A DNA stretch of 64,000 bases from Verrucomicrobiales bacterium (GCA_048267005.1 JBLWYI010000013.1:118455-182454), one strand, 5' to 3'; shown: positions 5,966 through 64,000, counted from the stretch's first letter. Numbers and translations are program-made. Notes: generated by a model not told the origin, from the letters alone.

Positions 5966-7969
5966 TTATTTTGTCTCCACAGGAGGCTCGCTTACGAGTT
6001 GAACAAACGCTTCGATGGTTCGTTCAGCCTGGGTGCCGTTGAAGACCAGGTAGCGGTCTTTGCCGTTCTCTTTGCCTTTGCGATTGGGGCGGAACAGGGT
6101 TGCGCCGTCGTCTTCCACAGTCACTAAACCCGGGGGCGACAAATCGAAATATCCCCGGTCCGGATAAACGGCGTGCAGCACTGCCGTGAGATCCCAGGTG
6201 GGGCGGTCATGCGGTTTGGTGGGGACGTAGGCGAGGTAGCCTTCCCGGATGATGTGTTTGGGATCGTATTGGTAGTCCTGTTGAATGCTTCCCCAGGGAT
6301 AGGCTGCGGCGATTCCGATCTCGTAGCCGCTCCAGATAATGGGAGTGGGCCAGGTCTTTGCGAACGACTGCGCTGACGGGACATCGAGGCGGACGTTGTA
6401 TTCCAGATGACGGGTGTCGAAGCGCACGGTCTGGAAAGCGCCGGCCATGATGATGAGTTCTTTCACCTTGGCTTTGGCAAGAGCCACGCCATCGAGGTCG
6501 GAGTGTTCGTCTGGCTCTGATTCAAGGAGCTGGGCGAGGTTGGTGAAGAATCCGACCTGCGCGATTTTAACCGACTGATCGGGCTGTGCCGCGAGGGTTT
6601 TGCGAAGCAGAGCCACGGCATCTGGGGCATCCTTGCCGCTCTTCAAATCGTGATCATAATTATCGGCAAGTCCGTTGTAGCGTCCGGGCTCGGGAGTGAC
6701 ACCGTTGCGAACGGCACCCACGGGGATGTCGGGCCGACCGTAATAGGTGTTCAGGGCATCGATGAAGGGGGCTGATTTCTCATGATCCTTGGTCGAGGTG
6801 ACTGCCAGTAGCTCGACCGCACCGCGGCGCTCGAGCTGGTGAATCAATGCCAGAGCCATGGCATCATCGATGTCATTCCCCATGTCGGTGTCGAAGATCA
6901 GTTTCACTGGTTTCTCCAGTTTCGGGGCTGCGGCGATGTGGGCTGGGGGCTGAGCCACGAGATGGACGAGGGCTTCCTGGACCCGTGCGGTTTGTCCCGG
7001 GGTCATGGTCAGGAAGCGGTCCCGTTTCTGTGCGGGCTCTTTGCCTCCCGGGCTGAATCGGGTAAAGCCATCGTCTTCTACGGTGACACGCCCCGTCTTG
7101 GAGAAACCGAAGTAGCCCCGCTGCGGGAATACAGCGTAAAGCACGCTGGTTAAGTCCCACGTCGGTCGGTCATGCTCGGGGCCGCTGTGGAGGAGGTAAG
7201 CTTCTTTAACGGGATGCTTTTCCACATAGTTGAAATCGTTCCTGATGCTGGCGCGCGGGTAGGGCGCAGCGATCCCGATCTCGAATCCGCTCCAGACGAC
7301 GGGAATCTCGTTCGGCCATTCCGCTGCGAGGATCTGCATCGACTGGACGTGATTGCGAACATTGGCTTCGAGGTAGCGGTTGTTGTCGTTGATGGTTTCA
7401 AGCGAACCGGCCATCACTGAAAGCTCTTTCACCTTTTGGCGAATGAGTGCAGGGCCGCCTTCTTCCTTGAGAAGGTCAGCGAGGTTGGTGGCCAGTCCGA
7501 CCTGGACGATGGTGACGGATCGATCTTCTGCGGCGGTCAGGGTTTTCTTCAACAGAGAGACGGCATCTTCCGCGTCTTCGTCTTTGAGGTCGTGCGGGAA
7601 TGAATCAGCCAGCTTCAGGTATTTAGAATCACGGTCAGGAGCATTGGGATTGGTCCCGACCGGGATATCGGGGCGTCCGTAAAAAGTGTTCACTGCATCC
7701 ACAAAGGGAGCAGCCTGCGGGTGCTTCTTGGAGACTGTGACGGCGAGCAGCTCGCACTTCCCCCGGTCGGCCAGAGTGTGCAGCATGGCCAGAGCGAGGA
7801 CGTCATCAACATCACCGGTGATATCGGTGTCGAAGATAATGGGGACGGGCTTTTCCTCCGCGTAGGCAGCGATACCGAGGAGACAGGAGAGAGACAGGGC
7901 GACCAAACGAACCAACAGGGTTGGTTTGGTGATCGAACAGGGTTGGTTCGTAAGGAGAGGGGGAGTCAT
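5966..7969 (-). CDS. Tandem-duplicated IUNH-fold protein (two nucleoside-hydrolase-like domains)
   Basis: Two DTD motifs ('IIFDTDITGDVDDVLALAMLH' and 'LIFDTDMGNDIDDAMALALIH'). ATG at 7969 overlaps the permease stop (tcat, ATGA coupling). An alternative TTG start near 7915 would give a clean signal peptide 'MVRLVALSLSCLLGIAAYA' and place the REP-like element outside the CDS. Confidence 0.85.
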   Translation of the reverse strand: MTPPLLTNQPCSITKPTLLVRLVALSLSCLLGIAAYAEEKPVPIIFDTDITGDVDDVLALAMLHTLADRGKCELLAVTVSKKHPQAAPFVDAVNTFYGRPDIPVGTNPNAPDRDSKYLKLADSFPHDLKDEDAEDAVSLLKKTLTAAEDRSVTIVQVGLATNLADLLKEEGGPALIRQKVKELSVMAGSLETINDNNRYLEANVRNHVQSMQILAAEWPNEIPVVWSGFEIGIAAPYPRASIRNDFNYVEKHPVKEAYLLHSGPEHDRPTWDLTSVLYAVFPQRGYFGFSKTGRVTVEDDGFTRFSPGGKEPAQKRDRFLTMTPGQTARVQEALVHLVAQPPAHIAAAPKLEKPVKLIFDTDMGNDIDDAMALALIHQLERRGAVELLAVTSTKDHEKSAPFIDALNTYYGRPDIPVGAVRNGVTPEPGRYNGLADNYDHDLKSGKDAPDAVALLRKTLAAQPDQSVKIAQVGFFTNLAQLLESEPDEHSDLDGVALAKAKVKELIIMAGAFQTVRFDTRHLEYNVRLDVPSAQSFAKTWPTPIIWSGYEIGIAAAYPWGSIQQDYQYDPKHIIREGYLAYVPTKPHDRPTWDLTAVLHAVYPDRGYFDLSPPGLVTVEDDGATLFRPNRKGKENGKDRYLVFNGTQAERTIEAFVQLVSEPPVETK
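7901..7955. repeat. REP-like short repeat, two direct copies of the 'AACAGGGTTGG' core
   Basis: 'cgaaccaacagggttggtttgg' and 'gatcgaacagggttggttcg'; same core recurs at 7 or more other loci in the window. Confidence 0.6.
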
Positions 7970-8928
7970 GATTTTTTCTGTTTCATCCGGCGGATTCGCC
8001 AAGCATCAAAGATTACAGCGATGATGATGACCAGACCGGTCACGAGGAGTTTGGTTGAGTTTTCTGCACCGATGTGGCCAAGGCCCGCTGCGAGTGTGGC
8101 CATGATGAGAACACCGAGGAAACTACCGATGACGGAGCCCCGCCCACCCATGAGACTTGTGCCACCGATGACAACGGCAGCGATGGCGTCGAGCTCCAGC
8201 ATGTTTCCAGCGCCGGGATTTGCCGAGGCGAACCGGCTGGCTTCGAATGACGCTCCCAGGCCAGCCAGGGCTCCGGCGATGATGAATACGACGATCTTGA
8301 TCGGTTGCGTGCTGATCCCGGAAAAGATGGCCGCTTCTTCATTGGCTCCGACGACTTTGGTGTAGCGACCGAAAACGGTTTTCGAAAGTAAGACCTGCCC
8401 CAACGCCACGATCAATACCGCGAAGAGGAATGCCGGGGAGATTCCAAGGTTCGTGATGGGAGCCGAGAGCCATTCAATTTCAGCTCCGATGTATTTGGTC
8501 TGGGAATCGGTGGTGCGTTGCGCCAGGCCGCGGGCGATTTGCATCATGCCAAGGGTGACGATGAAACTCGGGACCCCGAATTTAACAGAGACGAATCCGT
8601 TTCCCGCACCGCAAAGTGCGCCGGTGGCTACGGCGAGGAGAATGGCGGGGATAAACGGCCAGCTCCAGTCGACCATGGCAATCCCGAGGATGGATCCGCT
8701 GAATGCGAGGACTGAACCAACGGACAGATCGATTCCACCAGTCATGATGACCAGTGTCATCCCGACAGCAACCACCGCGAGGGCCGGGACGGAATTGGCG
8801 ACGGAGTTGAATGTCCCGGTTGAGATAAAAGAGCGGTCGACGAATCCAAAGACTGCCACGACAGCGATCAGCACGCCGAGAAGGCCGAGCGACTCACCAA
8901 ACCTCTGGAGCGTGGGGCTTTTGATCAT
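7966..8928 (-). CDS. ABC transporter permease (ribose/CUT2-type, RbsC-like)
   Basis: 320-aa polytopic membrane protein with a typical RbsC-family Gly/Ala-rich TM pattern; directly follows the substrate-binding protein gene. Confidence 0.85.
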   Translation of the reverse strand: MIKSPTLQRFGESLGLLGVLIAVVAVFGFVDRSFISTGTFNSVANSVPALAVVAVGMTLVIMTGGIDLSVGSVLAFSGSILGIAMVDWSWPFIPAILLAVATGALCGAGNGFVSVKFGVPSFIVTLGMMQIARGLAQRTTDSQTKYIGAEIEWLSAPITNLGISPAFLFAVLIVALGQVLLSKTVFGRYTKVVGANEEAAIFSGISTQPIKIVVFIIAGALAGLGASFEASRFASANPGAGNMLELDAIAAVVIGGTSLMGGRGSVIGSFLGVLIMATLAAGLGHIGAENSTKLLVTGLVIIIAVIFDAWRIRRMKQKKS

Positions 8929-21871: not shown

Positions 21872-21989
21872 GAAACCAAAACAGAGAACCAAAGTAGAGC
21901 GGGGGCATCCTCCGCTCCGCAGTTTGCGCATCTTGTATTCGAAGGCACCTCGCCGGACCGCGAGTTGCCCACTCGCGTCAATGCCAAAA

Positions 21990-22032
21990 CGATCAGACCC
22001 TGTTCGTTCATCGGTCAGACCCTGTTGGATCG
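21990..22032. repeat. REP-like repeat, two copies in reverse orientation ('cagaccctgttcg', 'cagaccctgttggatcg')
   Basis: Lies between convergent sulfatase and DUF1501 genes. Confidence 0.6.
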
Positions 22033-22043
22033 TAAAGCCTCGA

Positions 22044-25717: not shown

Positions 25718-26070
25718 GTGAATGGTCGTGACGGCAACCCGCTTCTGCTGCGGAAGAAGTGAATGGTCATGGTGGCAACTCGCTTCTGCTGCGGAAGAAG
25801 CGAATGGTCACGGTGGCAACTCGCTTCTGCTGCGGAAGAAGTGAATGGTCGTGGTGGCAACTCGCTTCTGCTGCGGAAGAAGCGAATGGTCATGGTGGCA
25901 ACTCGCTTCTGCTGCGGAAGAAGTGAATGGTCATGGTGGCAACTCGCTTCTGCTGCGGAAGAAGTGAATGGTCATGGTGGCAACTCGCTTCTGCTGCGGA
26001 AGAAGCGAATGGTCATGACGGCAACTCGCCTCTGCTGCGGAAGAAGTGAATGGTCATGATGGCAACTCGT
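25718..26070. repeat. Tandem array, 41-bp unit, ~8.6 contiguous copies ('gtgaatggtcatggtggcaactcgcttctgctgcggaagaa')
   Basis: Directly visible; units abut with no spacers, with a few point variants (c/t, a/g) between copies; sits in a divergent intergenic region. Confidence 0.95.
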
Positions 26071-29500: not shown

Positions 29501-30090
29501 AGAAAGAGCTTTCGATGACTTCTTCCAACGTTCTCGAGAAAGCGATGCGACTTGCCGCGGCCCGTGCGGTGGCTGAAGTTCGTGCGGATGTGATTGGTGA
29601 AGTGGCCAGCGATGTTGAGCCGGACACCGACGCGAATCCTGAAACTGCAAATGCGGTTGCTGAAGGGGACATGCCGAAGGCCGACACAGAGGAGGAGGCA
29701 CCTATGGATCCCGATGAAGCCGAGGTGGTTGCCGTGGCTGCGGATGCGCTCTTGACTAAGAAATCACGTGAAGAGATCGAGAAAGAAATCGACGACTTGC
29801 GTGCCCGTCTCCAGACGCTGGAGGGTGTGATTCGTGAATCCTATGACAAGGCGGATAAGACTCATGAAACCGTGATGAAAGCCTCTGACGTCGCGGCGAA
29901 GACTCCGAAAGTGATTGAAGAGCGTGCCAGAATTGAGTCCATGAAAGCTCAGGAGAAACAAAAGATTGAGCAGGCAAAAGCACAGCAGGAAAAGGCTGTG
30001 GGCGATCAGAAGTCTAAGATTGAGTCATTGAAGAAGAAATATCTCGAGTCGGTTCCCAAGCGGGATGAGATCAAAAAGCCGGTCGAATAA
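26596..30090 (+). CDS. Large secreted protein: planctomycete cytochrome c-like domain + WD40 beta-propeller + ~700-aa Ala/Lys-rich coiled coil
   Basis: Signal peptide; 'CLNCHNPDEAKGGLDLSSY'; WD40-type repeats ('ILWEMNEG', 'KLWKADG', 'IKVWNIADG'); long AAKA/EAAK low-complexity helical region. Confidence 0.85.
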   Translation: MKNRPTRSCLSIAVSILTIGAVQAADDKKAAAEKITYQDHVLPILENRCLNCHNPDEAKGGLDLSSYGATMNGGSGGEVVISEDANSSRLYTLTAHIETPKMPPEKPKSPDKELETIKKWIDGGLLETASSKAKKSDKPKLDMNLITSVGKPENPAMPEHLILEPALVTDRPNSVPAIAHSPWAPILAVAGQKQVLLYHSEDFDLLGVLPYPEGFPQSLNFSSNGSLLSCGGGRGGKSGSVVAWDVKTGERVIEVGKEFDIVLGSDISADHRRVVMGGPGKNIKIWDTVAGEQVSTIKKHPDWMLTADISPDGVLFATGGRNSGLYIWETATGLEFYTLKGHTGAVTDLAWRPDGNVLASVSEDGQAILWEMNEGKQVKKWAAHSGGALAVDIAPDGTIATVGRDKNLKLWKADGAALKTVAASDDIVMSVAFSQDSKRVITGDYSGNIKVWNIADGVELAKLDSNPPTIDQQLAYSTKRIAEVRGNLPKLQEGIKAAGTELTAATAKAGEVNKAFSEAAGKKGAAEKLVATLDGQVKTYTAQVQAAQKNVAAKAADAKAKTDAYNATVTAQTEAKNEVTKWTGAFQKAEAAAKQAATNLAAAKAAAEKPMLDAATQKALTDAVNGYNAADAAKKQADAKVAQAKAADDAANQKLAAANKAKADNAAKVTAATAAAKKAADALAAASQNGAVPPAPVVQADAAAKKALQQSQAALNTASQAQVAAQNARNATAKQLADATALQAPAAKKLADAGAALKPLREKEAAAKAVLDKAKALLAQRTTENAAAAKALADNKAQLDNANKNIAAADAKVKSALGARDAANVASKAASDDLAAKNKTLADANTKLKTSKEEVAKLTALVDNLTKQKEASAKLVAAIQKKEADAKKSVEVAQMEVQTNEFLVKKFTAAAINLDAKEQAEELVEMTEELEEKVVEVAEASEEFKKAAQSRAAAEKTLADAKKTVDEGKKELSMTSSNVLEKAMRLAAARAVAEVRADVIGEVASDVEPDTDANPETANAVAEGDMPKADTEEEAPMDPDEAEVVAVAADALLTKKSREEIEKEIDDLRARLQTLEGVIRESYDKADKTHETVMKASDVAAKTPKVIEERARIESMKAQEKQKIEQAKAQQEKAVGDQKSKIESLKKKYLESVPKRDEIKKPVE

Positions 30091-30096
30091 GCGGCC

Positions 30097-30135
30097 GGAT
30101 CGACAGGGCAACAGGGTGTGATCGTAAAACGATCG
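30097..30135. repeat. REP-like repeat ('ggatcgacagggcaacagggtgtgatcg')
   Basis: Core CAACAGGGT in the short gap after the WD40 gene stop. Confidence 0.5.
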
Positions 30136-31647
30136 CGCCCTGAAAAAAGTCCGGCAGGGGAGTTGCGGCGTAGTAGTCTTACGTCGTTGAAATTTCTCTT
30201 CATATTACTTATCCCGATCCTTTTCGGAGGGAGTCTGGCAACAGGGCAGGAGTTGCCCGTTGCGGCGCGGATTCATTGTTCCGGTTGCCATCAGCCTCCC
30301 CGCCCCGGTTCCATGACCCGGGAGGCTTGGTTTCCTACGATCGCCATCATGCTCGAACTGATGGAGGAACAAAAGTTCCCCCTTCCGACCCGGAGCCAGT
30401 TTATTGAGATCACTGACTTTTACGTGAAGAACAGCCCGGTCGATTACGAACCGGCGAAGGACGACCTGGAGCCGTCGAAGATTCCTTTTGAAAAGGTAAC
30501 GGTGGGGGATAAGCCGGTCAATGAGCGGCCGCAGGTCACTAACGTGAGAGTTTGTGACCTGGACGGGGATGGGCAATCCGATGATGTGGTGGTCTGCGAC
30601 AATGAGTTTGGAACGGTCAGTTGGCTGCGATTGCTGGACGATGGAAAGACCTGGAAAGAAACCGTCATTGCGGAGGCGCCGGCTCCGGTGCGGTCGACTG
30701 TCTTCGATTTTGATGGCGATGGGGATATGGACATCGCGGTATCAGCGATGGGATTCATGCACCCTAACGATCGGTTGATCGGTGAGTTCCATTTGCTGCT
30801 GAACCGGGGAGATCAGACATTCGAGCAGAAAGTTCTGCTGAAGGGCACGCCACGCATTGCAGATATCGCCCCGGGGGATTTCGACGGGGATGGCGACTTT
30901 GATTTCGTGATCGCGATGTTCGGATGGCGGACGACCGGCGGGATCGGGCTGTTGACTCAGGAGGCAAACGGGAAGTTTAAATTTGATACGGTCTTCAAGA
31001 TCAACGGAACGATGCGGGTGACCCCTGCGGACCTGAACGGAGATGATAAGCTCGACTTTCTGGCACTGATCACGCAGGAGCACGAGACTATCGGGGGGTT
31101 TATGAATCAGGGGGACGGGAAGTTTGCAGATACGGTCGTCGCGAGAGCGAATCACCCGGTGTTCGGCTCATCGGGGATCGAGTGGGCCGACCTCGATGGT
31201 GACGGGGACATGGATATCGTCTACTCGAACGGCGATATGATGGATGAAAACCCTGAGCCGAAGCCGTATCACGGGATACGATGGTTTGAGAACAGAGACG
31301 GTAAGTGGATCTTGCACCAGATCGCCCAGATGCCGGGCTGCTTTTCGGGTTCGGTCCGTGATATGGATGGGGACGGCGACCTCGATATCGTTGCCTCAGC
31401 TCTGTACTTTCATTGGGATGTGCACGACTTTCCCAGCTTGATCTGGCTGGAGAATACCGGAGGCGCGAAGTCCTTCATACGCCGGAGGATTGCCTATGCC
31501 CCGTCAAACCTGGCGAGCACAGACGTGGGAGACCTGAACGGAGACGGTCTCCTCGATATTGTGGGCGGCGGGATGCATGTTCCCGGGCCGACGGGCCGCA
31601 AGGGACGCCTGACCCTATGGTTACAAAAGCCGGCGGAAACCGACTGA
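30118..31647 (+). CDS. FG-GAP / VCBS repeat beta-propeller protein (integrin-alpha-like), secreted
   Basis: Repeated 'DxDGDGDxD' loops ('DLDGDGQSDDVVV', 'FDFDGDGDMDIAV', 'DFDGDGDFDFV', 'DLDGDGDMDIV'). Start uncertain: GTG at 30118 lies inside the REP-like element; TTG at 30187 would yield signal peptide 'MKFLFILLIPILFGGSLA'. Confidence 0.75.
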   Translation: MIVKRSRPEKSPAGELRRSSLTSLKFLFILLIPILFGGSLATGQELPVAARIHCSGCHQPPRPGSMTREAWFPTIAIMLELMEEQKFPLPTRSQFIEITDFYVKNSPVDYEPAKDDLEPSKIPFEKVTVGDKPVNERPQVTNVRVCDLDGDGQSDDVVVCDNEFGTVSWLRLLDDGKTWKETVIAEAPAPVRSTVFDFDGDGDMDIAVSAMGFMHPNDRLIGEFHLLLNRGDQTFEQKVLLKGTPRIADIAPGDFDGDGDFDFVIAMFGWRTTGGIGLLTQEANGKFKFDTVFKINGTMRVTPADLNGDDKLDFLALITQEHETIGGFMNQGDGKFADTVVARANHPVFGSSGIEWADLDGDGDMDIVYSNGDMMDENPEPKPYHGIRWFENRDGKWILHQIAQMPGCFSGSVRDMDGDGDLDIVASALYFHWDVHDFPSLIWLENTGGAKSFIRRRIAYAPSNLASTDVGDLNGDGLLDIVGGGMHVPGPTGRKGRLTLWLQKPAETD

Positions 31648-38400: not shown

Positions 38401-40661
38401 AGGTTGGGTTGCTTCGTTTTGCTCCTGAAGACCGGGCGCTTGCGTTGCTGTTCCTTCACCAGTGGAAAACAGATGGGGGGCATGATCAACTCGCGAAGAA
38501 GATTCGTGGCCTTGGAATTCTAAGAGAGAGTTATGCTTCGGATGCGGTGGCTGAAATTTACGTTGGGGAAATCAAAGACGAGCTCAATCATTTTCTCGAA
38601 ACCAGTGCGAGAAACTGCCCTCGCCTTAAAGCGGCAAATATTGATCAAGCGGCTGAGTATTTGTTTTTCGAATTACTCGATGCAAAGAAGTTTGCGATAT
38701 CGCCTCAAGCTGGCGAGGTCGTGAAACAGTTTCAGCATACGTTAACCGCGAAGCGGCTTGAGAAGCAGTTCGCGGCCGCGGTGGAAGGTTTCAATGGTGA
38801 TGCCACGGGACGCTTCGAAGTCACTCGCGACTGGATCGAGGGAATCTGTGGAGCTGAGATTGAGAAGAATGAGGTTTCCCCTGATCAACTGTCAACGGAC
38901 GGAGAGAAGCAGGAACGATCCAACACTGTAAGTTCGTTGAACGTACCCTATTGGATCGAAGCGGCGGTTCATCTGGTTCGGGGAGGGTTTGAATTGACGG
39001 CGATTCAGCAGATTGAAATGTCAGCCGCTTTGGAGGGGATTACCGGGTCGCACTCACTTGTGGAAGACGGGGTTTACCAGTTCGATTATATCAATTTCAC
39101 TCAGAGGTTGCGTCGTTTTGAAACCGAGGACGCTCCGCGCTTCGCTGCGTATCAGCATCGCAAAACCGATTTGATCGAATCCAAGCGCGAGGAGATGCGT
39201 TTGGAAGAGTTTAAGCCCAAGGTGATGTCTGCATTTGTGCGGAATAAATTACTGAACCGAATCTATCTCCCGTTGATCGGTGACAATCTGGCGAAGCAAA
39301 TGGGAACTGCCGGTGCGGATACCCGGACAGACCGAATGGGAATGTTGCTTCTGATTTCTCCGCCCGGATACGGAAAGACGACTTTGATGGAATACGTCGC
39401 CAACCGGTTGGGGATCACATTCATGAAGATCAACGGGCCGGCCATCGGGCATGATGTGACTTCCCTGGATCCGGAAGAAGCGCCCAATGCAAGCGCCCGC
39501 GAGGAGGTCAACAAGCTGAACCTGTCGCTTGAGATGGGGGACAATGTCATGATTTATCTCGATGACATTCAGCACTGCAACCCTGAGTTTTTGCAGAAGT
39601 TTATTTCGCTATGTGATGCTCAGCGGAAGATCGAGGGCGTCTGGAAAGGCAAGCCGCGCACTTATGACTTGAGGGGAAAAAAGGTCTGCGTCGTGATGGC
39701 TGGAAACCCTTACACCGAGAGCGGTGGCAAGTTTCAGATTCCCGACATGCTCGCGAACCGGGCGGACACTTATAATCTGGGGGATATCATCGGGGCTCAT
39801 TCCGGTGACTTCGAGGCGAGTTACGTCGAGAACTGCCTCACTTCGAACTCTGTCCTGAGTCAACTCGCCAGTCGCAGTCAGTCGGATGTCTATTCGGTGA
39901 TGAAGATTGCGGAAACGGGCAGCCACGAAGGAGTCGACTTTGAAGGGAACTATTCGATGGAAGAGATTGAAGACTTGGTCTCGGTGATGAAGAAGTTGAT
40001 GCGGGTTCGCGATACGATCCTGCGGGTAAATATGGAATACATCCGTTCCGCCGCGATGGAAGATGACTACCGCACCGAGCCACCATTTAGAATGCAGGGC
40101 TCATACCGGAACATGAACCGGATCGCTGAGAAGATCTTACCGATCATGACGGATGCCGAGGTCGAGCAAGTGATTATGGATCACTATGAAAATGAATCGC
40201 AGACGCTGACGGCCGGAGCGGAGGCAAATTTGCTGAAATTCCGGGAGCTGGAAGGGATTCAGACTGATGAGGAGAAAGTGCGGTGGGATGAGATTAAATC
40301 GAAGTTCAATCGCAATCAGTTGATGGGCGGACGTGGTGAAAACGATCCTGTCTCACGGGTGGTTGGCACGCTGGCGAGTATTCATGAAACTCTGGCAAAA
40401 GCGGCAACGCACCAGATGCAGCCTGCTACGTTGGCTGATGTAACGGTTGAGAGGTTGGCTGAAATTATTGCAAACCTGCGAGCGGTTCCGGTGGATGTAG
40501 AGATCAAGGTGGTTCCCGTTCACGAAGGCGAAGAAGAGGGGCCTCCTAAGAAGGTATCGAAAAAGAAGTCAGCTAAAACGAAAAAGATCTCAGGCAAGGA
40601 GATCAACCTTCCCGTGGATGTTGAGGCTGTCGTCGACCAAAAAGATGGTAATTCGGACTAG
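35466..40661 (+). CDS. Giant (1731 aa) protein of unknown function with a single MoxR/AAA_5-like P-loop ATPase module near the C-terminus
   Basis: ATG at 35466; Walker A 'SPPGYGKTT' (~aa 1290), Walker B 'VMIYLDDIQH', sensor-1-like 'VVMAGNP', Arg-finger-like 'DMLANRADTY'; ~1250 aa upstream with no motifs I recognise; Lys-rich C-terminal tail. Confidence 0.85.
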   Translation: MPEEPIEKNTDAGASGAEQQLEGGAYEIIRNRLTQHGSDLRTRLGKLNSERQAVFGAVEPALIATERVTTDNNCEARDIIAVGDNKFIFGYNVHIGLKSITDLADVFAAYEYDPDTHTFSDVGLDILNKGTFAEDFLYLYKYYRETVFVKFMKIGPHLYMAFRVGKKVDDIKCFKWLIKEGGVLEYIGNRFDHEYRFPPQQEFEWVRAHRGMYREGMHPHVSIDDRLFVETVGGDLTVKVEDNTESGEGIYEEQVTNEDQTLDDAEIFYAIVGSLILLKVLPYQEKDYRYLVYNEKVKSVTRIDSIANSCVLLPEDHGIIFSDGFHLQTGDTKRFDSGLRDMLFERRVASPNGEDFLYVFYNRLSGTYVLMSYNLIDQKVDNPIVCNGYTVFKNGELIYFRTDEEPKKHHALQVWTTPYMEGEFRVDEKTDSYLFKIGNAEVVRAMAECHEILNLISRDDSYADLYVDLTKKAGDLIDTYFWIGQEAAFNLKAALGEIKGAAEAAISEFDKVQRLRKSTADESKRVSDSAKQIAKAARNTRPDDIMGFVHRLSELRTVRGEIISLKDLRYVDSDTVESLEAEVVEATEMVSQNCVEFLLEPVALDPYREQVSVQEKRVPEVAKVTEADQVEEELDKAGAELEMLIEIVTNLKIEDATQTTQIIDDISAIYATLNAVRASLRNRRKALSKTEGAAQFGAQVKLINQAVINYLDLCETPEKTDEYLSKVMVQLEELEGNFSDFEDYVDELTEKRDEIYNAFESKKVALVEARNKRAGSLVKSAERVLTTIQHRLSSLDSIPDINGYLAGDLMVEKVRDIIEQLNLVGDSVKADDIQTRLKTLRDDSVRQLKDRQELFVDGKNIIQFGNNKFSVNSQELELSIVPHNEKMCFHLSGTDFFEAVTDEEFLSTKSVWNQEVLSENRTVYRAEYLAWKCLQAGVEPTLEAVQKFMAPRYAEGYTKGVHDRDGFAIYEKLHSVHSQVGLLRFAPEDRALALLFLHQWKTDGGHDQLAKKIRGLGILRESYASDAVAEIYVGEIKDELNHFLETSARNCPRLKAANIDQAAEYLFFELLDAKKFAISPQAGEVVKQFQHTLTAKRLEKQFAAAVEGFNGDATGRFEVTRDWIEGICGAEIEKNEVSPDQLSTDGEKQERSNTVSSLNVPYWIEAAVHLVRGGFELTAIQQIEMSAALEGITGSHSLVEDGVYQFDYINFTQRLRRFETEDAPRFAAYQHRKTDLIESKREEMRLEEFKPKVMSAFVRNKLLNRIYLPLIGDNLAKQMGTAGADTRTDRMGMLLLISPPGYGKTTLMEYVANRLGITFMKINGPAIGHDVTSLDPEEAPNASAREEVNKLNLSLEMGDNVMIYLDDIQHCNPEFLQKFISLCDAQRKIEGVWKGKPRTYDLRGKKVCVVMAGNPYTESGGKFQIPDMLANRADTYNLGDIIGAHSGDFEASYVENCLTSNSVLSQLASRSQSDVYSVMKIAETGSHEGVDFEGNYSMEEIEDLVSVMKKLMRVRDTILRVNMEYIRSAAMEDDYRTEPPFRMQGSYRNMNRIAEKILPIMTDAEVEQVIMDHYENESQTLTAGAEANLLKFRELEGIQTDEEKVRWDEIKSKFNRNQLMGGRGENDPVSRVVGTLASIHETLAKAATHQMQPATLADVTVERLAEIIANLRAVPVDVEIKVVPVHEGEEEGPPKKVSKKKSAKTKKISGKEINLPVDVEAVVDQKDGNSD

Positions 40662-47428: not shown

Positions 47429-47860
47429 ATGCCAACAGATTTACGCAGCCTCACTTCCGAACAAGACACACACGACTTTGGTGCCGAAGTCGCAGTCGGC
47501 CTGAAATCTGGCAGCGTCATCGGGCTGATCGGTCAGCTTGGAGCCGGGAAAACCCACTTCACTCAGGGAATCGTTAATGCTCTAGGATCAGAGGAATCAG
47601 TCACCAGCCCGACTTTTACGCTGGTTAACGAATACCATGACGGTCGGCTTCCGGTCTTCCACTTTGACTTTTACCGGATGGATACCCGCGACGAAGTCCT
47701 CAAGATTGGGTGGGACGAATTCCTCGACGAGCCGGGTATCGTCATTGTCGAGTGGGCCGATAAATTTGCCGAATTGATGCCCGAAGAAACATCCTGGTTC
47801 ACATTCAAGATCCAACCGGACGGCACCCGAACGATCGAACAGGGTCTGTCCGACAAGTGA
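47429..47860 (+). CDS. tsaE: tRNA threonylcarbamoyladenosine biosynthesis protein TsaE
   Basis: ATG at 47429; P-loop 'GQLGAGKT' and 'SPTFTLVNEY' TsaE motifs. Confidence 0.9.
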   Translation: MPTDLRSLTSEQDTHDFGAEVAVGLKSGSVIGLIGQLGAGKTHFTQGIVNALGSEESVTSPTFTLVNEYHDGRLPVFHFDFYRMDTRDEVLKIGWDEFLDEPGIVIVEWADKFAELMPEETSWFTFKIQPDGTRTIEQGLSDK

Positions 47861-47874
47861 ACAGGGTTGGATCG
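47831..47874. repeat. REP-like repeat pair ('cgatcgaacagggtctg' + 'gaacagggttggatcg') spanning the tsaE stop codon
   Basis: First copy encodes the last residues of TsaE (..EQGLSDK*), second copy lies in the convergent intergenic gap. Confidence 0.65.
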
Positions 47875-47879: not shown

Positions 47880-48860
47880 CTAGACCGTTTGGCTGGTCTT
47901 TCGCTTTGCCCAGGCCGCTGCGCCCATCACTCCCGCATCATCTTCGAGGCTGGCTGCCACCACCTTGAAGCTGTTCTTGTAAGTCGCGATGAGATGCTTG
48001 TTGGCTGATTTGTGAACGTTCTTCACGTAAAGGTCAGGCAGAGCTTCGACTAAGCCACCACCGAGAACAATCAGGTCCGGTGCCAGGAGATGCACCACGG
48101 TGGCCACGCCGGCTCCCAGAGTTTTTGCCGCCTCCTTCACAATCTTTTCGATCGCTTTGTCGCCTTTCTCAATTGAGGCCGCGAGCTTTCCGCTGGTGAT
48201 TTTAGAAATATCAGTACCGCACAGTTTCAATAAATGGGGAGCCTGTCCACGGTAGGCCGCGCGGGCCGCTTCGATTGCAATTTTCAATCGGCTGCACTCA
48301 GTTTCCAGAGACGGGCCACCGTTCCCCAGAGGGATGTGTCCCAGCTCCATACAGGAAAGCTTGCCGCCCTGAAGCAACTGGCCATCCAGAACCGCACCCG
48401 CACCAATCCCGGTTCCGGGGAAAATTCCCACCACACAGTCCACACCTTTGGCGACACCCATTTGGTATTCGGCATAGATCCCGGCATCGACGTCATTGCA
48501 AATCCAGGTCGGAGCCCCGAACTCAGCAGTCAGATGCTCAGAGACCGGTACGTTTTTCCAGCCCAGATTCGGGGCTTCCACGAGGATGCCCGTCTTCGGG
48601 TTGATTGGACCGGGGCAACCCACTCCAATCGTTTCGATCTGATCCGCAGTTACTCCCGCGTTGTCGAGGGCTTCGCGAATAGTCAGTGCCATTCTCTTCA
48701 AGCCGGAGCTGACTCCGCGATGGCCTTCCGTTTTCGTCTTGGCACGTCCCAGCTCTTCGAAATTGTCATCGAAAATCTTAGCCAGCATTTTCGTGCCGCC
48801 GAGATCGAATCCGACGATGACTGAACCAGTATGAGATGGGGGGGATTGTTCTTTGCTCAT
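47880..48860 (-). CDS. ROK family sugar kinase (glucokinase-like)
   Basis: 'VIVGFDLGGTKM' and 'GCPGPIN' ROK motifs; ATG overlaps the dxr stop. Confidence 0.9.
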   Translation of the reverse strand: MSKEQSPPSHTGSVIVGFDLGGTKMLAKIFDDNFEELGRAKTKTEGHRGVSSGLKRMALTIREALDNAGVTADQIETIGVGCPGPINPKTGILVEAPNLGWKNVPVSEHLTAEFGAPTWICNDVDAGIYAEYQMGVAKGVDCVVGIFPGTGIGAGAVLDGQLLQGGKLSCMELGHIPLGNGGPSLETECSRLKIAIEAARAAYRGQAPHLLKLCGTDISKITSGKLAASIEKGDKAIEKIVKEAAKTLGAGVATVVHLLAPDLIVLGGGLVEALPDLYVKNVHKSANKHLIATYKNSFKVVAASLEDDAGVMGAAAWAKRKTSQTV

Positions 48861-50034: not shown

Positions 50035-50940
50035 TCACGAAATAAACAGCAAATACAGATACAGAACAGGAGCGGTAAACAGCACTGAATCAATCAGATC
50101 CAGCACCCCACCAATGCCGGGCATTTTGCGGCCGGAATCTTTGGCTTCCAGGCTTCGCTTCAGGATTGATTCCGCCAAATCTCCCAAAACCGCGACCAGC
50201 GCCAGCGCTACCGCCAGTATGGCGGCATGAAGCGGAGTGATCAGGGGAATCTTGTCCCCGAAGAGAAAATACGCTCCGAAACTCGCAATGAATCCAAAGA
50301 GAATGGCCCCGCCGAAGCCCTGCCAGGTCTTACCGGGGCTGACATGCGGTACCATTTTGTCGCGACCGATCAGTGAGCCCACCGCGTAGGCACCCATATC
50401 GGTGAACTTGGTGACCATCAGCAGGAAAAGAACGTAAAAATGAGCAGAATCGTTTCCGGACGTATCTTTCAGATCGAGCAGCAGGATCTTCGGCACAAAA
50501 GCGAAAAGAATCACGATGTAGATAAAACCAAAGATGGTCGTCGATATTTCATCCAGTGTCCGGAACCCTTCAATCGGGGCGCGCAACCGTTCCAGCACAA
50601 CACAGATCACCAGCGCTGCGACGGCCAGGCTGTCCAGATCAACAAGCCAGTCCGGCGAGAAACCCCAGTGCCGGGCAAAAAGCAACCCGAGGTAGGCTGC
50701 AGTGACCCCATAGGTCTGCCATTGAAACCGGCGAAAGCCCCGCAGGGGGAACAGTCCGAAGTATTCAAACAACGCCAGAAACGCGATGGCCCCGGCGATG
50801 GTGAAAAACAACCAGTCGATCGCCAACCAGAACGCCACGACGAAAAAGGCCCACAAAAAAAGCGTGCTGACGAGGCGGCTGCCGAAAACTTGTTTTTTCG
50901 AAGGCTTAGGGGCGGTTTTTTCTGAAGAATCGTCGGACAT
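50035..50940 (-). CDS. cdsA: Phosphatidate cytidylyltransferase (CDP-diglyceride synthase)
   Basis: C-terminal signature 'ESILKRSLEAKDSGRKMPGIGGVLDLIDS'; ATG at 50940. Confidence 0.9.
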   Translation of the reverse strand: MSDDSSEKTAPKPSKKQVFGSRLVSTLFLWAFFVVAFWLAIDWLFFTIAGAIAFLALFEYFGLFPLRGFRRFQWQTYGVTAAYLGLLFARHWGFSPDWLVDLDSLAVAALVICVVLERLRAPIEGFRTLDEISTTIFGFIYIVILFAFVPKILLLDLKDTSGNDSAHFYVLFLLMVTKFTDMGAYAVGSLIGRDKMVPHVSPGKTWQGFGGAILFGFIASFGAYFLFGDKIPLITPLHAAILAVALALVAVLGDLAESILKRSLEAKDSGRKMPGIGGVLDLIDSVLFTAPVLYLYLLFIS

Positions 50941-51036
50941 GCAAGCGGGCAATTCGCCGCCAAGGAAACAGGGTCACGACCGAGTTGGCAATGACGAAGT
51001 TGCGCAAATTCACCACTTAAAGCGTTAGTTCCGGTT

Positions 51037-52505: not shown

Positions 52506-52594
52506 AGGAAGATGAACAAAGCATGAATAAAGTGGTTGCAGAATTTTCTGATTTTCGAATGAAGGCGAACAGATCTTCCTTCCAAATGCGTGAA

Positions 52595-52637
52595 CGATCC
52601 AACAGGGTCTGATCGACGAGGCAACCCTGTTGTCTCG
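52595..52637. repeat. REP-like repeat, inverted pair forming a hairpin ('ccaacagggtctg ... caaccctgttg')
   Basis: 8-bp perfect inverted cores separated by ~15 nt. Confidence 0.6.
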
Positions 52638-52727
52638 TGCGTCTTTTCAGCTAGGGAAAACCGACTGCTTCCTGTCTTTTAATGCCAACTTTGAAGCATG
52701 AGTTTGACCTGGAAAAAGTACCCAATT

Positions 52728-52990
52728 TGCGGGTCCGCACGAACGGTACCCTGCCGTCAGGACGTCCTGACGGGCAGGTACCACACGGATATGGGCAAAA
52801 GTGCGTCCTGACGGGCAGGTACCACACGGATATGGGCAAAAGTGCGCCCTGACGGGCATAAATCGCACGGACATGGGCAAAAGGACGTCCTGACGGTCAT
52901 AAATCGTACGGACATGAGCAAAAGGACGTCCTGACGGTCATAAATCGTACGGACATGAGCAAAAGGACGTCCTGACGGTGGGTGCCGTCC
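52728..52990. repeat. Tandem array, 41-bp unit, ~6 copies ('gacgggcaggtaccacacggatatgggcaaaagtgcgtcct'; later units diverged to 'gacggtcataaatcgtacggacatgagcaaaaggacgtcct')
   Basis: Contiguous units without spacers; first unit contains a GACGTC-centred palindrome. Confidence 0.9.
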
Positions 52991-55003: not shown

Positions 55004-55013
55004 AAATGAAAAT

Positions 55014-55044
55014 GCCGGAGTTGAAAACAACTCCGGCATTTCTT
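55014..55044. terminator. Bidirectional rho-independent terminator (gccggagtt / aactccggc hairpin with T-rich flanks on both strands)
   Basis: 9-bp stem, 6-nt loop, between the convergent GT4 and fasciclin genes. Confidence 0.55.
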
Positions 55045-55092: not shown

Positions 55093-55626
55093 TTAGCTCT
55101 TCGGCATAATCACTGCATCGATGACGTGAATGACACCGTTTGATGCTTTGACGTCAGTGGCGGTAACGTTTGCACCGTCGATCATGACTTTACCGTCTTC
55201 GACTTTCACGCTGGCTTCAGTTCCGTTTACGGTAGGGGCCATCATGGTTTTTACATCAGCTGCCATTACTTTCGCAGGCACAACGTGGTAGGTGAGAATG
55301 GCAACGAGCTTCTCTTTGTTTTCCGGCTTGAGCAGCATTTCGACGGTTCCTTCAGGAAGTTTTTCGAAGGCTTCGTTGGTGGGCGCAAAAACAGTGAACG
55401 GACCTTCACCGGAGAGTGTTTCAACAAGGTCGGCTGCTTTGACTGCGGCAACGAGGGTTGAGAAGTCCTTATTTCCGGCTGCAACTTCCACGATGTTCTT
55501 TTCCTCGTGGTTATCAGCAAGGGCTGAAAGGGTAAGACCTGCGGTCACGATGATCGCGAGTGCTGAAGTGGTGATTTTGGTAGTGAGTTTCATTCTGTTA
55601 TTTCTGGTTGCCCGTGAATTCTTCAT
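55093..55626 (-). CDS. Fasciclin (FAS1) domain protein, secreted
   Basis: '[18 protein letters not shown]' and '[10 protein letters not shown]' FAS1 motifs; start at ATG 55626 or 55593. Confidence 0.8.
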
Positions 55627-55811
55627 GAATGCGGGTTGATCAGTGATTCGGGCGAGATGAATCATTGGATCTACTTTTTTCAGAAAAGAATTTCCGGGCT
55701 CAGAATAAGACGGCGAATGGCCGGCTCATCAGCCCTTGTCGCGAACGGGAAACCGAACAGATCGGGAGACTGAGCGTTTGGCCTCAAACGGGGGCTGATC
55801 GTGGAACGTGA

Positions 55812-60882: not shown

Positions 60883-62562
60883 ATGCCGCCATCGCTCCCG
60901 ACATCCAGTTCCGCCCGTCTCCATGATCTGGATGCGTTGCGGGCCTTTGCGATGTTGCTGGGCATTATTCTACACGCCGCCATCGCCTTCGTTCCGTTTC
61001 CCGGTTGGCTCGTGCAGGATGTGGAGAGACCGATGTGGAACACCCCTGAATTTCTCCACCAGCTGGGCCTCACCCTGCCGGAGACGTTCAGCCCGATGGC
61101 TCTGTTGCTCAACCTCATCCACGCCTTCCGGATGCAGTTGTTCTTTGTCGTGAGTGGATTCTTTGCGGCCATGCTCTGGAAAAAGCGCGGGCTGCGGGCA
61201 TTGCTCAAGCATCGCGCAAAACGCATCCTCCTGCCGCTCGTTCCGGCCACGATACTTATCTGGCCGCTCGTCGCACTCGCGGGGCTTATGGTGGCAGGGA
61301 CAAAGCCGGATTCTCTCTGGGTGGCGGCGAAGGAGGGGCGGATCGAGGTGGTGAAAGCGCAGCTTGAGGCAGGAGTCGACCCGAACGAACTCGATCCGTC
61401 AGCCGGTGTTTCGGCCCTGACCTGGTCGGCATGCGCCGGGCATCTGGAGGTCGCTGAATGGTTGATTGCCAGCGGAGCCGAGGTGGAACGGCGGGATCGG
61501 GACGGGGGAACACCTCTCCATGCCGCGGTGTTCTTCGCCCATCCAGAGGTGGTCAACTTGCTGGTGGCGAATGGCGCTGACGTACAGGTCAAGAATCAGC
61601 GGGGCGAATCGGCCCTTGATGTGGTTGAGGCTGACTACGGAACCACAAAATTCATTGGCAGGCTGATCGGGGTTCCTGTCAAAGAAGAGGCAGCCTTCGC
61701 TGATAGCCGTGAGCAAATAGGAAAACGCTTGGGGAAACTCGAAGGGGAAGTTGAGAGCGATTCAACGTGGGAGATTTGGAAGATGATTCTCGGTGTCTAC
61801 ATGGCAGCGGCGATGGCTCCGGTCTTTCTGCACCTGTGGTTTCTGCACTATCTCTTTTGGCTTGTCCTGTTGTTTGCCTTCGCGGCCTGGAGGTATGAAA
61901 AATCGGGCCGCAAATTTCGTCCCCGGATTGCCTGGTTGATTCCATTGGCGGTTATTCCGCAGCTGTTCATGGTCCTGGATTTTGGTCCCGACACCGCTCC
62001 GGGATTGATCCTGTGGCTGCCCAAGCTTGCCTACTACGCGGTGTTCTTCGGAGTCGGGGCCCTGTTTTATGGGCGGCCGGATTTTGGTGAGAAGCTCAAG
62101 CTTCGATGGCCTGTGCTCTTTGCCGTGGCTCTGCCGGTCGGCTGCATCGCCCTGTATTTCAATTTCCTGAGAGACGTGACCTTTGAAGCCGGCTTTGATG
62201 AGAATCAGGTGCCGGTATTTGGCTTTCACATCATCTATTGCATCGGCGCGGTGGCATTCGCCTGGCTTATGGTCTTCGGGATGATTGGAGTCTTCCGCCG
62301 GTTTTTTCCCGCAGAAGACCCGCGGATTCGCTACATTTCAGACGCGAGCTACTGGCTCTACATCGCGCATTTGCCGCTGCTGTTTTTCATCCAAATCGCC
62401 ATGACCGGCTGGGAGTTTCCCGCGCTGTTGAAACTGTTGATCGCCTGCGTTGCCACGATTGGAATTCTCCTTCTCGCCTACGAGTGGTTCGTTCGATACA
62501 CTTTTATCGGCACATTGCTGAATGGGAAAAAAGTGAAGCCGTCACGAACCAACAGGGTCTGA
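60883..62562 (+). CDS. Acyltransferase family 3 (OafA-like) membrane protein with internal ankyrin-repeat insert
   Basis: 'LDALRAFAMLLGIILHAAIAF' AT3 N-terminus; ankyrin repeats ('GGTPLHAAVFFAHPEVVNLLVANGADV'); ATG at 60883 just after the upstream stop. Confidence 0.85.
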   Translation: MPPSLPTSSSARLHDLDALRAFAMLLGIILHAAIAFVPFPGWLVQDVERPMWNTPEFLHQLGLTLPETFSPMALLLNLIHAFRMQLFFVVSGFFAAMLWKKRGLRALLKHRAKRILLPLVPATILIWPLVALAGLMVAGTKPDSLWVAAKEGRIEVVKAQLEAGVDPNELDPSAGVSALTWSACAGHLEVAEWLIASGAEVERRDRDGGTPLHAAVFFAHPEVVNLLVANGADVQVKNQRGESALDVVEADYGTTKFIGRLIGVPVKEEAAFADSREQIGKRLGKLEGEVESDSTWEIWKMILGVYMAAAMAPVFLHLWFLHYLFWLVLLFAFAAWRYEKSGRKFRPRIAWLIPLAVIPQLFMVLDFGPDTAPGLILWLPKLAYYAVFFGVGALFYGRPDFGEKLKLRWPVLFAVALPVGCIALYFNFLRDVTFEAGFDENQVPVFGFHIIYCIGAVAFAWLMVFGMIGVFRRFFPAEDPRIRYISDASYWLYIAHLPLLFFIQIAMTGWEFPALLKLLIACVATIGILLLAYEWFVRYTFIGTLLNGKKVKPSRTNRV

Positions 62563-62587
62563 CCGGTGAGGCAACAGGGTTGGATCG
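62543..62587. repeat. REP-like repeat pair ('cgaaccaacagggtctgaccg' + 'gaggcaacagggttggatcg') spanning the acyltransferase stop codon
   Basis: Same two-unit arrangement as at the tsaE 3' end. Confidence 0.65.
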
Positions 62588-62597: not shown

Positions 62598-63002
62598 CTA
62601 AGACTTAGTGATAATTTCATCGGCCAGTTTATCGGTGATCCCTTCTCGAGCGTCCACCCACTTCAGGCTTTTAATTTCATCAGGGATGTCACAATCATGA
62701 AGGAGAATGGGAACAACTCTGGCCAAAGTATTCATAGGGTCGTTGAATAAATGTAACCATACCTCGAAATTAGCCCATTTTGATTCTACAAAAGAAGGGG
62801 ATAGTAAAATGAGAGCCCGTCGCGAATTCTTCATTCCTGCAACAACTTCTATTCCAATATTTGCCCCATAATTTAGATCGTCGTCAAACCAGCACGGACG
62901 ACCTTTGGATGTGAAAATATCTCGAAGTAGTTTTGCTTCAATCTTGTCGTCCGAAGAATGGGAGAGAAAGAAGCTAAATTGGTATTTGTCGATTTTGCTC
63001 AT
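62598..63002 (-). CDS. Minimal TIR-domain protein (134 aa)
   Basis: 'FSFFLSHSSDD' beta-A motif, 'ALILLSPSFVESKWANFEVW' with Glu in the catalytic-Glu position; ATG overlaps the upstream gene stop (ATGA); region GC ~40%. Confidence 0.85.
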   Translation of the reverse strand: MSKIDKYQFSFFLSHSSDDKIEAKLLRDIFTSKGRPCWFDDDLNYGANIGIEVVAGMKNSRRALILLSPSFVESKWANFEVWLHLFNDPMNTLARVVPILLHDCDIPDEIKSLKWVDAREGITDKLADEIITKS

Positions 63003-63574
63003 GCTGCTTTCGCCAATGACATCGAAAGTTCTTTCCCCCGATCAGTCAGTTCAAATAGCTTTTCTTTGTGGCCCGCTTTCTCAATATTGCTTTCAACAAA
63101 GCAGCCTTGGCTAATTAAGGAATTTACTTGCGCCGTCGCGTTTGTAGATGAAGCGCCATATTCGCTTTTTAGCCGAACCGTGAGAATTGACGTGCGTAGG
63201 TATACTTCAGGCACTTCCAACTCTTGCAGCCACCCCATCAGAAGAAGCTTATCTTTGAATTGATTTAACCTGTGAATCGCATCTTTGGCACTGTATTCAA
63301 CAGACCCGTTTCGCTTAATTCGCTTCCGTTTAAATTGGTGCAAAACAAGCCGTCTAAGGTGTCGAGGGCTCACTTCCAAGAGTTCGCTCAAGAGACCAAG
63401 CGATATCCGATCAAGGGGTTCCTCGTCCGCTAAATGAATGAAATTTGGAAGATAGTAATCATCTTCAAGTCCAATTTCGATAAGGATTTCCTGCATTGCA
63501 AGGTCACGCTGCTCTCCCTTAATCTGCAAAAACGTATTCAACGCTTGCAAATAGTTATTCGTTTCGGGCCCCAT
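62999..63574 (-). CDS. HTH/winged-helix domain protein (191 aa), translationally coupled partner of the TIR gene
   Basis: HTH-like 'LGLLSELLEVSPRHLRRLV' and C-terminal winged-helix-like 'AQVNSLISQGCFVESNIEKAGHKEKLFELTDRGKEL'; low GC. Confidence 0.75.
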   Translation of the reverse strand: MGPETNNYLQALNTFLQIKGEQRDLAMQEILIEIGLEDDYYLPNFIHLADEEPLDRISLGLLSELLEVSPRHLRRLVLHQFKRKRIKRNGSVEYSAKDAIHRLNQFKDKLLLMGWLQELEVPEVYLRTSILTVRLKSEYGASSTNATAQVNSLISQGCFVESNIEKAGHKEKLFELTDRGKELSMSLAKAA

Positions 63575-63861
63575 TTAGGGGGCAATTTAGCAAGCGGCAC
63601 ATAAAACTCAATGAAAATCGGACTGAAATTAGTGCAATTTGCAAAATACAGCTGATTTCTTCTGTTCGCAAGCGGTATTTTGGATTTATTAACTAAATCG
63701 TTTAGTTGGAATTCTGTTTTGCCATGAAATGGTTTAGGACGAATTAACATTTGGTCGGTCGTAATCATTGTTGTGCTGAAAACCTCGGTGAGCGTTTTCT
63801 GGGAAATCACATGAATGGCCGCTTCATTACTAATTTTGCCCCTTGTTCGACCAAACGGCAA
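63538..63861 (-). CDS. Hypothetical small Lys-rich protein, possible third gene of the low-GC islet
   Basis: 107-aa ORF in AT-rich DNA (where random ORFs are rarer); TTG start or an internal ATG; overlaps the partner-gene start by 37 nt out of frame. Confidence 0.25.
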   Translation of the reverse strand: MPFGRTRGKISNEAAIHVISQKTLTEVFSTTMITTDQMLIRPKPFHGKTEFQLNDLVNKSKIPLANRRNQLYFANCTNFSPIFIEFYVPLAKLPPKWGPKRITICKR

Positions 63862-63868
63862 GAGGAGC

Positions 63869-64000
63869 GACCTTCCGAACGTTCAGACACGGGGTTGTGA
63901 AAAACGTACGACCTTCCGAATGCTCAGACACGGGGTTGTGAAAAACAAACGACCTTCCGAACGTTCAGATACGAGGTTGTGAAAAACAAATGACCTTCCG
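63869..64000. repeat. Tandem array, 41-bp unit, at least 3.2 copies, truncated by window end ('gaccttccgaacgttcagacacggggttgtgaaaaacgtac')
   Basis: Contiguous units with point variants; runs to the last base of the window. Confidence 0.9.

Follow-up and report, generated by a model that had tools for sequence, protein, structure and literature searches.

A stretch of 64,000 nucleotides from a Verrucomicrobiales bacterium (GCA_048267005.1 JBLWYI010000013.1:118455-182454), called the window below, carries a short repeat at a series of gene boundaries, and at positions 47831-47874 this repeat also encodes the end of tsaE. What kind of element is it, and what keeps it in place? An earlier note on this DNA had likened it to repetitive extragenic palindromic (REP) sequences and bacterial interspersed mosaic elements (BIMEs). 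The family is genuine, and we found no earlier description of it: a literature search with the sequence, and with Verrucomicrobia combined with REP, RAYT (REP-associated tyrosine transposase), or terminator, did not find it described. Likewise, the window has no Rfam matches at gathering thresholds, and a four-unit array retrieved nothing but spurious eukaryotic matches even at E ≤ 10. The interpretation that we tentatively favor is that of a clade-specific REP-like interspersed repeat whose core could be the recognition site of a putative dedicated clade-specific protein.

An exact core in 22-bp phase

The core of the repeat, AACAGGGT, occurs 13 times in the window where 1.27 matches are expected, and at most 6 were found in any of 100 dinucleotide-preserving shuffles. 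The longer pattern AACAGGGTYTG (5 observed, 0.05 expected) and the 16-mer proposed in the earlier note, with up to three mismatches allowed (12 found, 0.58 expected), are also in excess. A short repeat family beyond chance, as had been claimed, is thereby confirmed. Gene gaps or last codons hold 12 of the 13 exact cores, and this placement is far from chance because approximately 88% of the window DNA is coding. The seven sites listed previously were all recovered, some displaced by a few bases. They comprise four head-to-tail pairs at exactly 22 nt, one inverted pair, and two single units, and this constant spacing of the tandem copies is a feature that the previous account did not include. 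The two cores named there both exist, but they are variants of one unit, with either TCTG or TTGG after the core. The sites in the window, together with two further matches inside genes, are as follows.

7907-7950, plus strand: two head-to-tail units (cores 7914-7921 and 7936-7943), flanked by the stop of the ABC permease gene (7966-8928, minus strand) and the start of the nucleoside hydrolase gene
21990-22033, minus strand: two head-to-tail units (cores 21997-22004 and 22019-22026), in a gap into which a sulfatase gene and a DUF1552 gene converge
30103-30124, plus strand: one exact unit (core 30110-30117), part of a site spanning 30097-30143 that lies 7 nt past the stop codon at 30088-30090
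47831-47874, plus strand: two head-to-tail units (cores 47838-47845 and 47860-47867), convergent with the ROK kinase gene ending at 47880
50960-50981, plus strand: single unit (core 50967-50974), directly upstream of a cdsA-like gene (50035-50952, minus strand)
52594-52638: inverted pair (cores 52601-52608, plus strand, and 52624-52631, minus strand), in a divergent or noncoding region
62544-62587, plus strand: two head-to-tail units (cores 62551-62558 and 62573-62580), convergent with a TIR-domain open reading frame (ORF)
38910-38931, minus strand: decayed copy, CGAACTTACAGTGTTGGATCG, with two core mismatches, inside the gene for a 1731-aa ATPase
6093-6100, plus strand: isolated exact 8-mer without matching arms, within the gene for the nucleoside hydrolase; probably a chance match rather than a family member

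To place these sites in a broader context, a set of species-representative genomes (one genome per species) was scanned with the pattern AACAGGGTYKG-N11-AACAGGGT, which yielded at least 107 loci. Among the matches listed, the loci come from at least about 29 assemblies labeled Verrucomicrobiales, Akkermansiaceae, or Verrucomicrobia. The repeat is also present in a cultivated relative, Verrucomicrobiales bacterium BCK34 (L015 and L068). Family statistics were computed for the window plus the 107 listed loci (814 kb), from which four loci outside the Verrucomicrobia (L035, L083, L095, and L033) were later omitted. The matches in L083 and L095 look like chance, and L035 was rejected because its repeats are Bacteroidota plasmid iterons whose core and period coincide with those of the family by chance. 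L033 is a 3-kb contig labeled Bacteroidetes that bears family-like arrays. Four matches fell on viral contigs, three of them at one locus. As a control, we used 80 metagenomic loci (764 kb) of other lineages whose DXR proteins are 52-75% identical to that of the window; these hold 18 cores and not a single array, and their core density (0.024 per kb) equals the coding background. The at least 29 or so assemblies and the array-free control therefore indicate a family that is restricted at the level of a clade but present in many species within it.

Within the 814-kb sample, 312 exact cores fall into 152 clusters, which consist of one (29 clusters), two (91), three (28), four (3), or five (1) copies. 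Neighboring cores have the same orientation and a spacing of 22 nt in 144 of 160 cases, whereas same-orientation spacings of 21 and 23 nt occur once each. Inverted neighbors account for 13 of the 160, and 12 of these are spaced at 23 nt. The repeat unit is thus 22 bp long and has the form nCGAyyCAAC-AGG-GTTGGrTCGn, which is two-fold symmetric around an asymmetric, invariant AGG. The consensus of 148 distinct units, nnCGAnnCAACAGGGTTGGnTCnn, contains neither a GTAG nor a CGTC tag.

Conservation is concentrated in the core. The density of exact cores is 2.67 per kb in intergenic DNA and 0.019 per kb in coding DNA, a 140-fold difference, whereas cores with one mismatch are only about 1.5-fold denser between genes. 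Because the in-gene density of exact cores equals the chance level, the isolated match at 6093-6100 is compatible with chance. Arrays end sharply, since in-phase 22-mers just outside them contain a core with one or two mismatches in only 12 of 214 cases. When units were found by their arms alone, about 90% had an exact core, and arm positions agree with the genome consensus at about 70% per site.

The same pattern is evident at four orthologous gaps that carry an array in the same orientation (window and L032, L008 and L029, L025 and L040, and L054 and L074). The genes flanking these gaps have 64-78% DNA identity. By our own count, 64 of 64 core bases are identical, compared with about 32 of 56 arm and spacer bases (about 57%). 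These diverged arrays have not accumulated internal insertions or deletions, and their copy number shifts by whole units (for example, two in L054 and three in L074). The identical cores, diverged arms, and lack of indels therefore indicate that selection or continual renewal keeps the core and its spacing. Presence at a given gap can also vary, as L063 carries an array in a gap whose ortholog in L087 has none.

Placement among genes and signs of dispersal

Genes at the sampled loci were called with a simple codon-score method that places stop codons exactly but start codons only approximately. Context was counted for uniform arrays of at least two units with a called gene on both sides, which holds for 98 of 110 arrays. 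By the type of gap in which they lie, these divide into co-directional (72), divergent (15), and convergent (11). Expressed as the share of gaps that hold arrays, the values are 22.6% (co-directional), 14.8% (convergent), and 20.9% (divergent). Because occupancy per gap is similar across gap types, 3′ ends as such are not preferred, and the earlier statement that the repeats lie mostly at gene 3′ ends does not hold for the family. Within co-directional gaps, the median distance from the upstream stop codon to the array is about 6-7 nt, with occasional overlap, and the median distance from the array to the downstream start is 32-76 nt. Many arrays are followed by a start codon within just 0-40 nt. 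Offsets from stop codon to core range from -2 to -40 with no favored value, and no fixed insertion target at stop codons is therefore evident.

Array orientation is biased relative to transcription by approximately 2:1, a check that the earlier note had proposed. The ACCCTGTT reading is on the sense strand in 49 of the 72 co-directional gaps (two-sided binomial probability of about 0.003 by our own arithmetic). Measured against the majority gene strand of each locus, 66 arrays agree and 27 disagree (Fisher P = 5e-5). A replication-strand hypothesis was rejected, as orientation is unlinked to local GC skew (P = 0.5).

In the window, two genes end inside a repeat. Unit 1 of 47831-47874, a site whose sequence is CGATCGAACAGGGTCTGTCCGACAAGTGAACAGGGTTGGATCG and whose two unit copies lie 22 nt apart, encodes the last seven codons of tsaE, which ends GAA CAG GGT CTG TCC GAC AAG TGA (stop codon at 47858-47860). 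Similarly, the acyltransferase gene ends ACC AAC AGG GTC TGA, and its stop codon (62560-62562) is the TGA inside GTCTGA of unit 1 in 62544-62587. The protein ends inferred previously from these overlaps, EQGLSDK and TNRV, are both correct. At 7907-7950, the units show the ACCCTGTT reading in the sense of both the ABC permease and the nucleoside hydrolase genes. The latter gene most likely starts at a TTG abutting or inside the last repeat unit (7880-7910; TTG GTT CGT TTG GTC ...), and translation from it yields a signal peptide that has an arginine close to the N terminus. Its ortholog in L032 starts with ATG 10 nt past the array there, and no Shine-Dalgarno sequence was found at the gene in either the window or L032.

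A degenerate GACAGGGC at 30102-30109 abuts the exact unit at 30103-30124 from the 5′ side, and the right half of that unit forms a 14-bp hairpin with an inverted copy (30112-30142) followed by A6. The relative L189, whose ROK protein is 77% identical to that of the window, retains TGACCCTGTTTCCTTGGCGGCGA upstream of cdsA, and the pair that it carries at the 3′ end of the ROK gene, the counterpart of 47831-47874, is arranged differently. The L189 contig ends inside the repeat pair (6440-6476) downstream of the ROK gene, which suggests that these repeats break short-read assemblies. Pfam domains encoded around the repeats of the window include PSCyt1, DUF1552, and sulfatases, a set indicative of the Planctomycetes-Verrucomicrobia group.

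Several observations bear on how copies reach new sites. Locus L024 holds two three-unit blocks of 66 nt that lie 4 kb apart, are about 95% identical, and have unrelated flanks. Assembly JAEUHH has identical 44-nt two-unit arrays at several loci. Arm identity is 0.55 within a genome and 0.46 between genomes, although this is true of some genomes only. Copies are also found in frame within genes. The dxr gene of L012 contains three in-frame units (66 nt, 4348-4413) coding for GIQQGCLFDSTGLGDLSNRVKS, and dxr of L190 (9039-9090) has two exact cores at the same position, in frame and spaced by 22 nt. In L109, whose 21-kb locus has no arrays, dxr carries a decayed version (AAACACGGT and AAAGAGGGC). 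The repeat-bearing segment aligns without gaps to ordinary DXR proteins of equal length, and hence either preexisting coding sequence acquired the cores or an insertion took place with exact compensation. Moreover, L100 has an exact in-frame inverted pair in the ortholog of the 1731-aa ATPase gene, and the decayed copy at 38910-38931 is the relic found at the corresponding place in the window. Judged from such sequence comparisons, near-identical blocks at unrelated loci and in-frame copies in genes point to dispersal or conversion.

At eight loci of JAEUHH/JAEUHI (L001, L010, L011, L017, L044, L047, L066, and L080), whole arrays are bracketed by an additional inverted pair, (A)TTTCC ... GGAAA(T). 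This pair does not occur where one unit meets the next and is therefore either part of the element's outer edge or a palindrome that is preferred as a target.

Known repeat systems and competing explanations

The family shares many traits with the REP, BIME, and REPIN sequences of Enterobacteria and Pseudomonas, in which GTAG-tagged units of 20-40 bp are mobilized by RAYT transposases. It consists of short imperfect palindromes in many copies, nearly all extragenic, that often lie just past stop codons or within operons, are kept at orthologous gaps in related species, and have sequence variants that are partly genome-specific. The comparison made in the earlier note therefore stands with regard to density, extragenic location, and proximity to stops. 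However, REP superfamilies are defined by an unpaired GTAG or CGTC tag at the end of the stem-loop, and head-to-tail dimers of REP units are absent or rare (Di Nocera et al. 2013, PMC3733652). Our family lacks these tags and has a fixed 22-bp head-to-tail period rather than inverted dimers. It further differs in that the center of the palindrome is conserved, not the foot, and in that arrays are equally frequent in divergent gaps. Genomes with REP sequences also have a cognate gene for RAYT, a Y1 HUH transposase, usually with REP units on its flanks. E. coli RayT as a tblastn query found no RAYT in the 814 kb of window and loci (best E = 0.86), which is a weak test because this sample covers well under 1% of each genome. 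The CGTC-tagged or untagged REP-like families (PMC3733652) likewise have 8-9 bp stems, short loops, in-gene copies, and no known dedicated transposase, but our family has no CGTC tag, an invariant 3-nt loop in place of 4-5 nt, and phased head-to-tail arrays.

Other known systems match the family in part. The DNA uptake sequences (DUS) of Neisseria and uptake signal sequences (USS) of Pasteurellaceae also have an exact 8-12-nt core across a family-level clade, lineage-variable flanks, few decayed copies, and in-gene copies that suit the encoded protein. DUS and USS frequently lie in coding as well as noncoding DNA, either as single copies or as inverted pairs, whereas our family has an extreme bias to gene gaps, tandem phased arrays, and an orientation bias relative to transcription. 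Rickettsia palindromic elements (RPEs) and intragenic REPs resemble it in having in-frame copies in variable segments of conserved genes (here, dxr and the large ATPase gene), but RPEs are insertions, whereas the copies in dxr are length-neutral and can be aligned with ordinary DXRs at every residue. Mycobacterial interspersed repetitive units (MIRUs) likewise form tandem arrays in operon gaps, with ends that may overlap stop or start codons and copy numbers that change in whole units. MIRU units are 40-100 bp long, contain small ORFs, and are not palindromic, in contrast to the 22-bp, two-fold symmetric unit described here.

Plasmid iterons, which are 17-22 bp long and adjacent to an origin or rep gene, and the 22-bp transposase-binding repeats at the ends of Tn7 and Mu likewise follow one another head to tail with a period of about 22 bp, and one protein unit occupies each site. 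In contrast, our arrays are dispersed on the chromosome beside housekeeping genes (their neighbors include tsaE, ROK kinase, ABC permease, and sulfatase genes) and not at a rep gene or transposon ends. A plasmid example is seen in L035 (1150-2900), a plasmid-like contig of a Saprospiraceae metagenome-assembled genome with ORFs that by eye resemble Rep, ParA, primase, ArdC, and SSB; its 22-bp direct repeats on the rep side, CATAAGTAAACAGGGTTCATGG, are iterons. Integron attC sites have RYYYAAC ... GTTRRRY outer cores, inner L boxes, extrahelical bases, and a length of at least 57 nt, and they form cassette arrays beside an integrase gene. This candidate was rejected, as only the AAC/GTT core is similar by eye, the unit is 22 nt, and the neighbors are housekeeping genes rather than cassettes, although no scan of the window for an integrase gene was made.

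Inspection by eye also led us to discard a sigma-70 or sigma-54 promoter; an integration host factor site, whose spacing does not fit; complementarity to the 16S rRNA 3′ end (the arms differ among genomes); a CsrA site (GGA is lacking and most copies are wrongly oriented); and a Verrucomicrobia LexA box.

If the family is a clade-specific REP-like repeat, as we tentatively favor, the core would be read by a putative sequence-specific protein. The 22-bp phase, which is about two helical turns, would place successive sites on the same face of the DNA; alternatively, in single-stranded DNA an array could fold into a series of short hairpins. Local duplication, or insertion beside an existing unit, is likely because arrays gain and lose whole units, and whole multi-unit blocks would be copied now and then to new sites. 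Copies would survive only where they are harmless, namely in gene gaps, near the upstream stop and away from the downstream start, with rare survivors in frame within tolerant protein segments. The genomic ecology would thus be like that of REP/REPIN sequences, and any effects on neighbors, such as on mRNA ends or insulation, would be secondary.

A number of observations weigh against this proposal. Neither the tblastn search with RayT (814 kb) nor the genes between paired arrays, which Pfam scans identified only as ordinary ones, provided a candidate protein. The arms in JAKSBG and JAGRPB are not homogenized within the genome and yet the cores are still exact, so that host-level selection is a better fit than recent spread. 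In dxr, the copies take the place of an equally long stretch, an outcome that a model of simple insertion does not predict. Persistence at orthologous gaps with 64-78% flank identity needs self-targeted renewal or a real function, and the 2:1 orientation preference is not explained by a DNA-only mechanism.

We give a lower, but still appreciable, likelihood to the explanation that the repeats are fixed host cis-elements and not mobile. They would be phased, operator-like sites for an abundant DNA-binding protein (nucleoid-associated, or a roadblock or insulator) that marks gene boundaries with one protein unit per 22 bp. Consistent with this, a two-fold symmetric consensus explains nearly all of the pairing in the unit: 70.3% of positions pair in the hairpin register compared with 67.3% after shuffling within alignment columns, and arm complementarity within one unit equals that between the facing arms of adjacent units. 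Because both controls nearly match the observed values, the pairing is almost wholly derived from the consensus, and real covariation is weak and limited to one or two positions. The 22-bp spacing is kept even in diverged arrays, the cores at the four orthologous gaps are conserved islands in diverged intergenic DNA, and exact cores persist in genomes with nonhomogenized arms. Against it speak near-identical multi-unit blocks at unrelated loci, in-frame copies inside genes, and a gap that carries an array in L063 and none in L087. In addition, the asymmetric AGG center is unexpected for a symmetric dimer, and gaps that contain promoters are not preferred. A bolder form of this idea, that the arrays are host-maintained punctuation in which a putative Verrucomicrobiales protein reads AACAGGGT at 22-bp phase in gene gaps, is also a minority possibility in our judgment. 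The signal could be, for example, a protein-dependent transcription boundary or roadblock, and it would be old, kept at orthologous gaps across genera and even written into dxr coding sequence.

A role at the RNA level, in which transcribed hairpins terminate transcription, protect 3′ ends, or serve as operon processing sites, appears unlikely, even though the arrays lie a median of about 7 nt past stop codons within co-directional gene pairs and their orientation follows transcription (66:27) rather than GC skew. The folding data are divided. Some arrays fold well, including those at 7901 (z = -4.0 and -3.8 on the two strands), at 30090 (-28.3 kcal/mol, z = -5.5), and the inverted pair at 52588 (-22.7 kcal/mol, z = -2.7 and -3.0). 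In contrast, the arrays at 21984 (z = -0.7 and -0.9), 47825 (z = +0.2 and -0.5), and 62538 (z = -0.7 and -0.8) do not outperform their shuffles. Only 10 of 101 arrays have a T run after them, which matches the rate for A runs and the rate on the upstream side, and a scan for terminator-like sites from 44 to 64 kb returned 28 sites where 25.4 are expected, with 52594-52638 as the sole family member caught. G-U and A-C mismatches show no asymmetry by transcribed strand. About 30% of arrays have the opposite orientation, arrays are found in divergent gaps and directly upstream of starts, and there is no obvious RNA-level reason for strict 22-nt spacing. Ordinary terminators are in use by this organism, as a textbook intrinsic terminator is present at 55009-55042 (minus strand; a 15-bp stem and then a T run) downstream of the gene at 55093-55665. 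An ordinary intrinsic terminator combines a stable GC-rich hairpin with a U tract directly behind it, and the arrays do not belong to this class, contrary to one of the roles suggested in the earlier note, but they may have a looser RNA role in 3′-end protection or processing. Least probable, in our view, is a motif without local function that is maintained by drive, either as a DNA uptake signal of the DUS/USS kind or by biased gene conversion. This would suit a short core that is exact over many species with few one-mismatch relics and that persists at orthologous positions, and it would suit dxr cores that arose without length change in a segment homologous to ordinary DXR and have a decayed version in L109. 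It is opposed by the 140-fold gene-gap bias, which DUS and USS do not have, by strict head-to-tail phase with few inverted pairs (12 of 160 at 23 nt), by orientation that is biased relative to transcription, and by the lack of any known competence in these organisms.

Neighboring features and wider meaning

Three tandem arrays of another kind are present in the window at 25718-26069, 52759-52978, and 63868-64000. They have a 41-bp period in common (8.6, 5.4, and at least 3.2 copies, with 90-94% matches), but their unit sequences are unrelated, with no more than 20 of 41 positions identical in any rotation. All three are noncoding; the second lies 120 bp from the inverted pair at 52594-52638, and the third runs past the end of the window. 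Just past the last repeat array is a low-GC region (62598-63861; ORF GC content of about 0.40-0.48, compared with about 0.54 for the window) that begins with the TIR-domain ORF (62598-63002, minus strand) and may be an acquired defense island. At the ROK 3′ end of L190 (11012-11095), the position of the two-unit array 47831-47874 in the window, a near-perfect inverted repeat of about 75 nt, AAAGTGACAGGGACTTCAGTCCCT ... AGGGACTGAAGTCCCTGTCACTTT, is built on GACAGGGAC and may represent a different repeat family.

Verrucomicrobiales are abundant in soil, sea, and gut, and to our knowledge almost none of their noncoding elements have been characterized. At a practical level, the repeats shift the predicted starts and ends of genes, as seen for tsaE, the acyltransferase gene, and the hydrolase gene, and they could serve as clade markers. 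What takes the family beyond a routine set of REP sequences is the combination of a core that is exact over at least about 29 species, a strict 22-bp phase, and length-neutral copies in dxr. The exact 8-nt core and its phase provide a handle on a putative sequence-specific protein, for which a transposase, a recombinase, and a nucleoid protein are candidates. The family is thus a test case for how short repeats are kept, whether by selfish spread, host function, or drive, far from the Proteobacteria in which REP sequences were defined.

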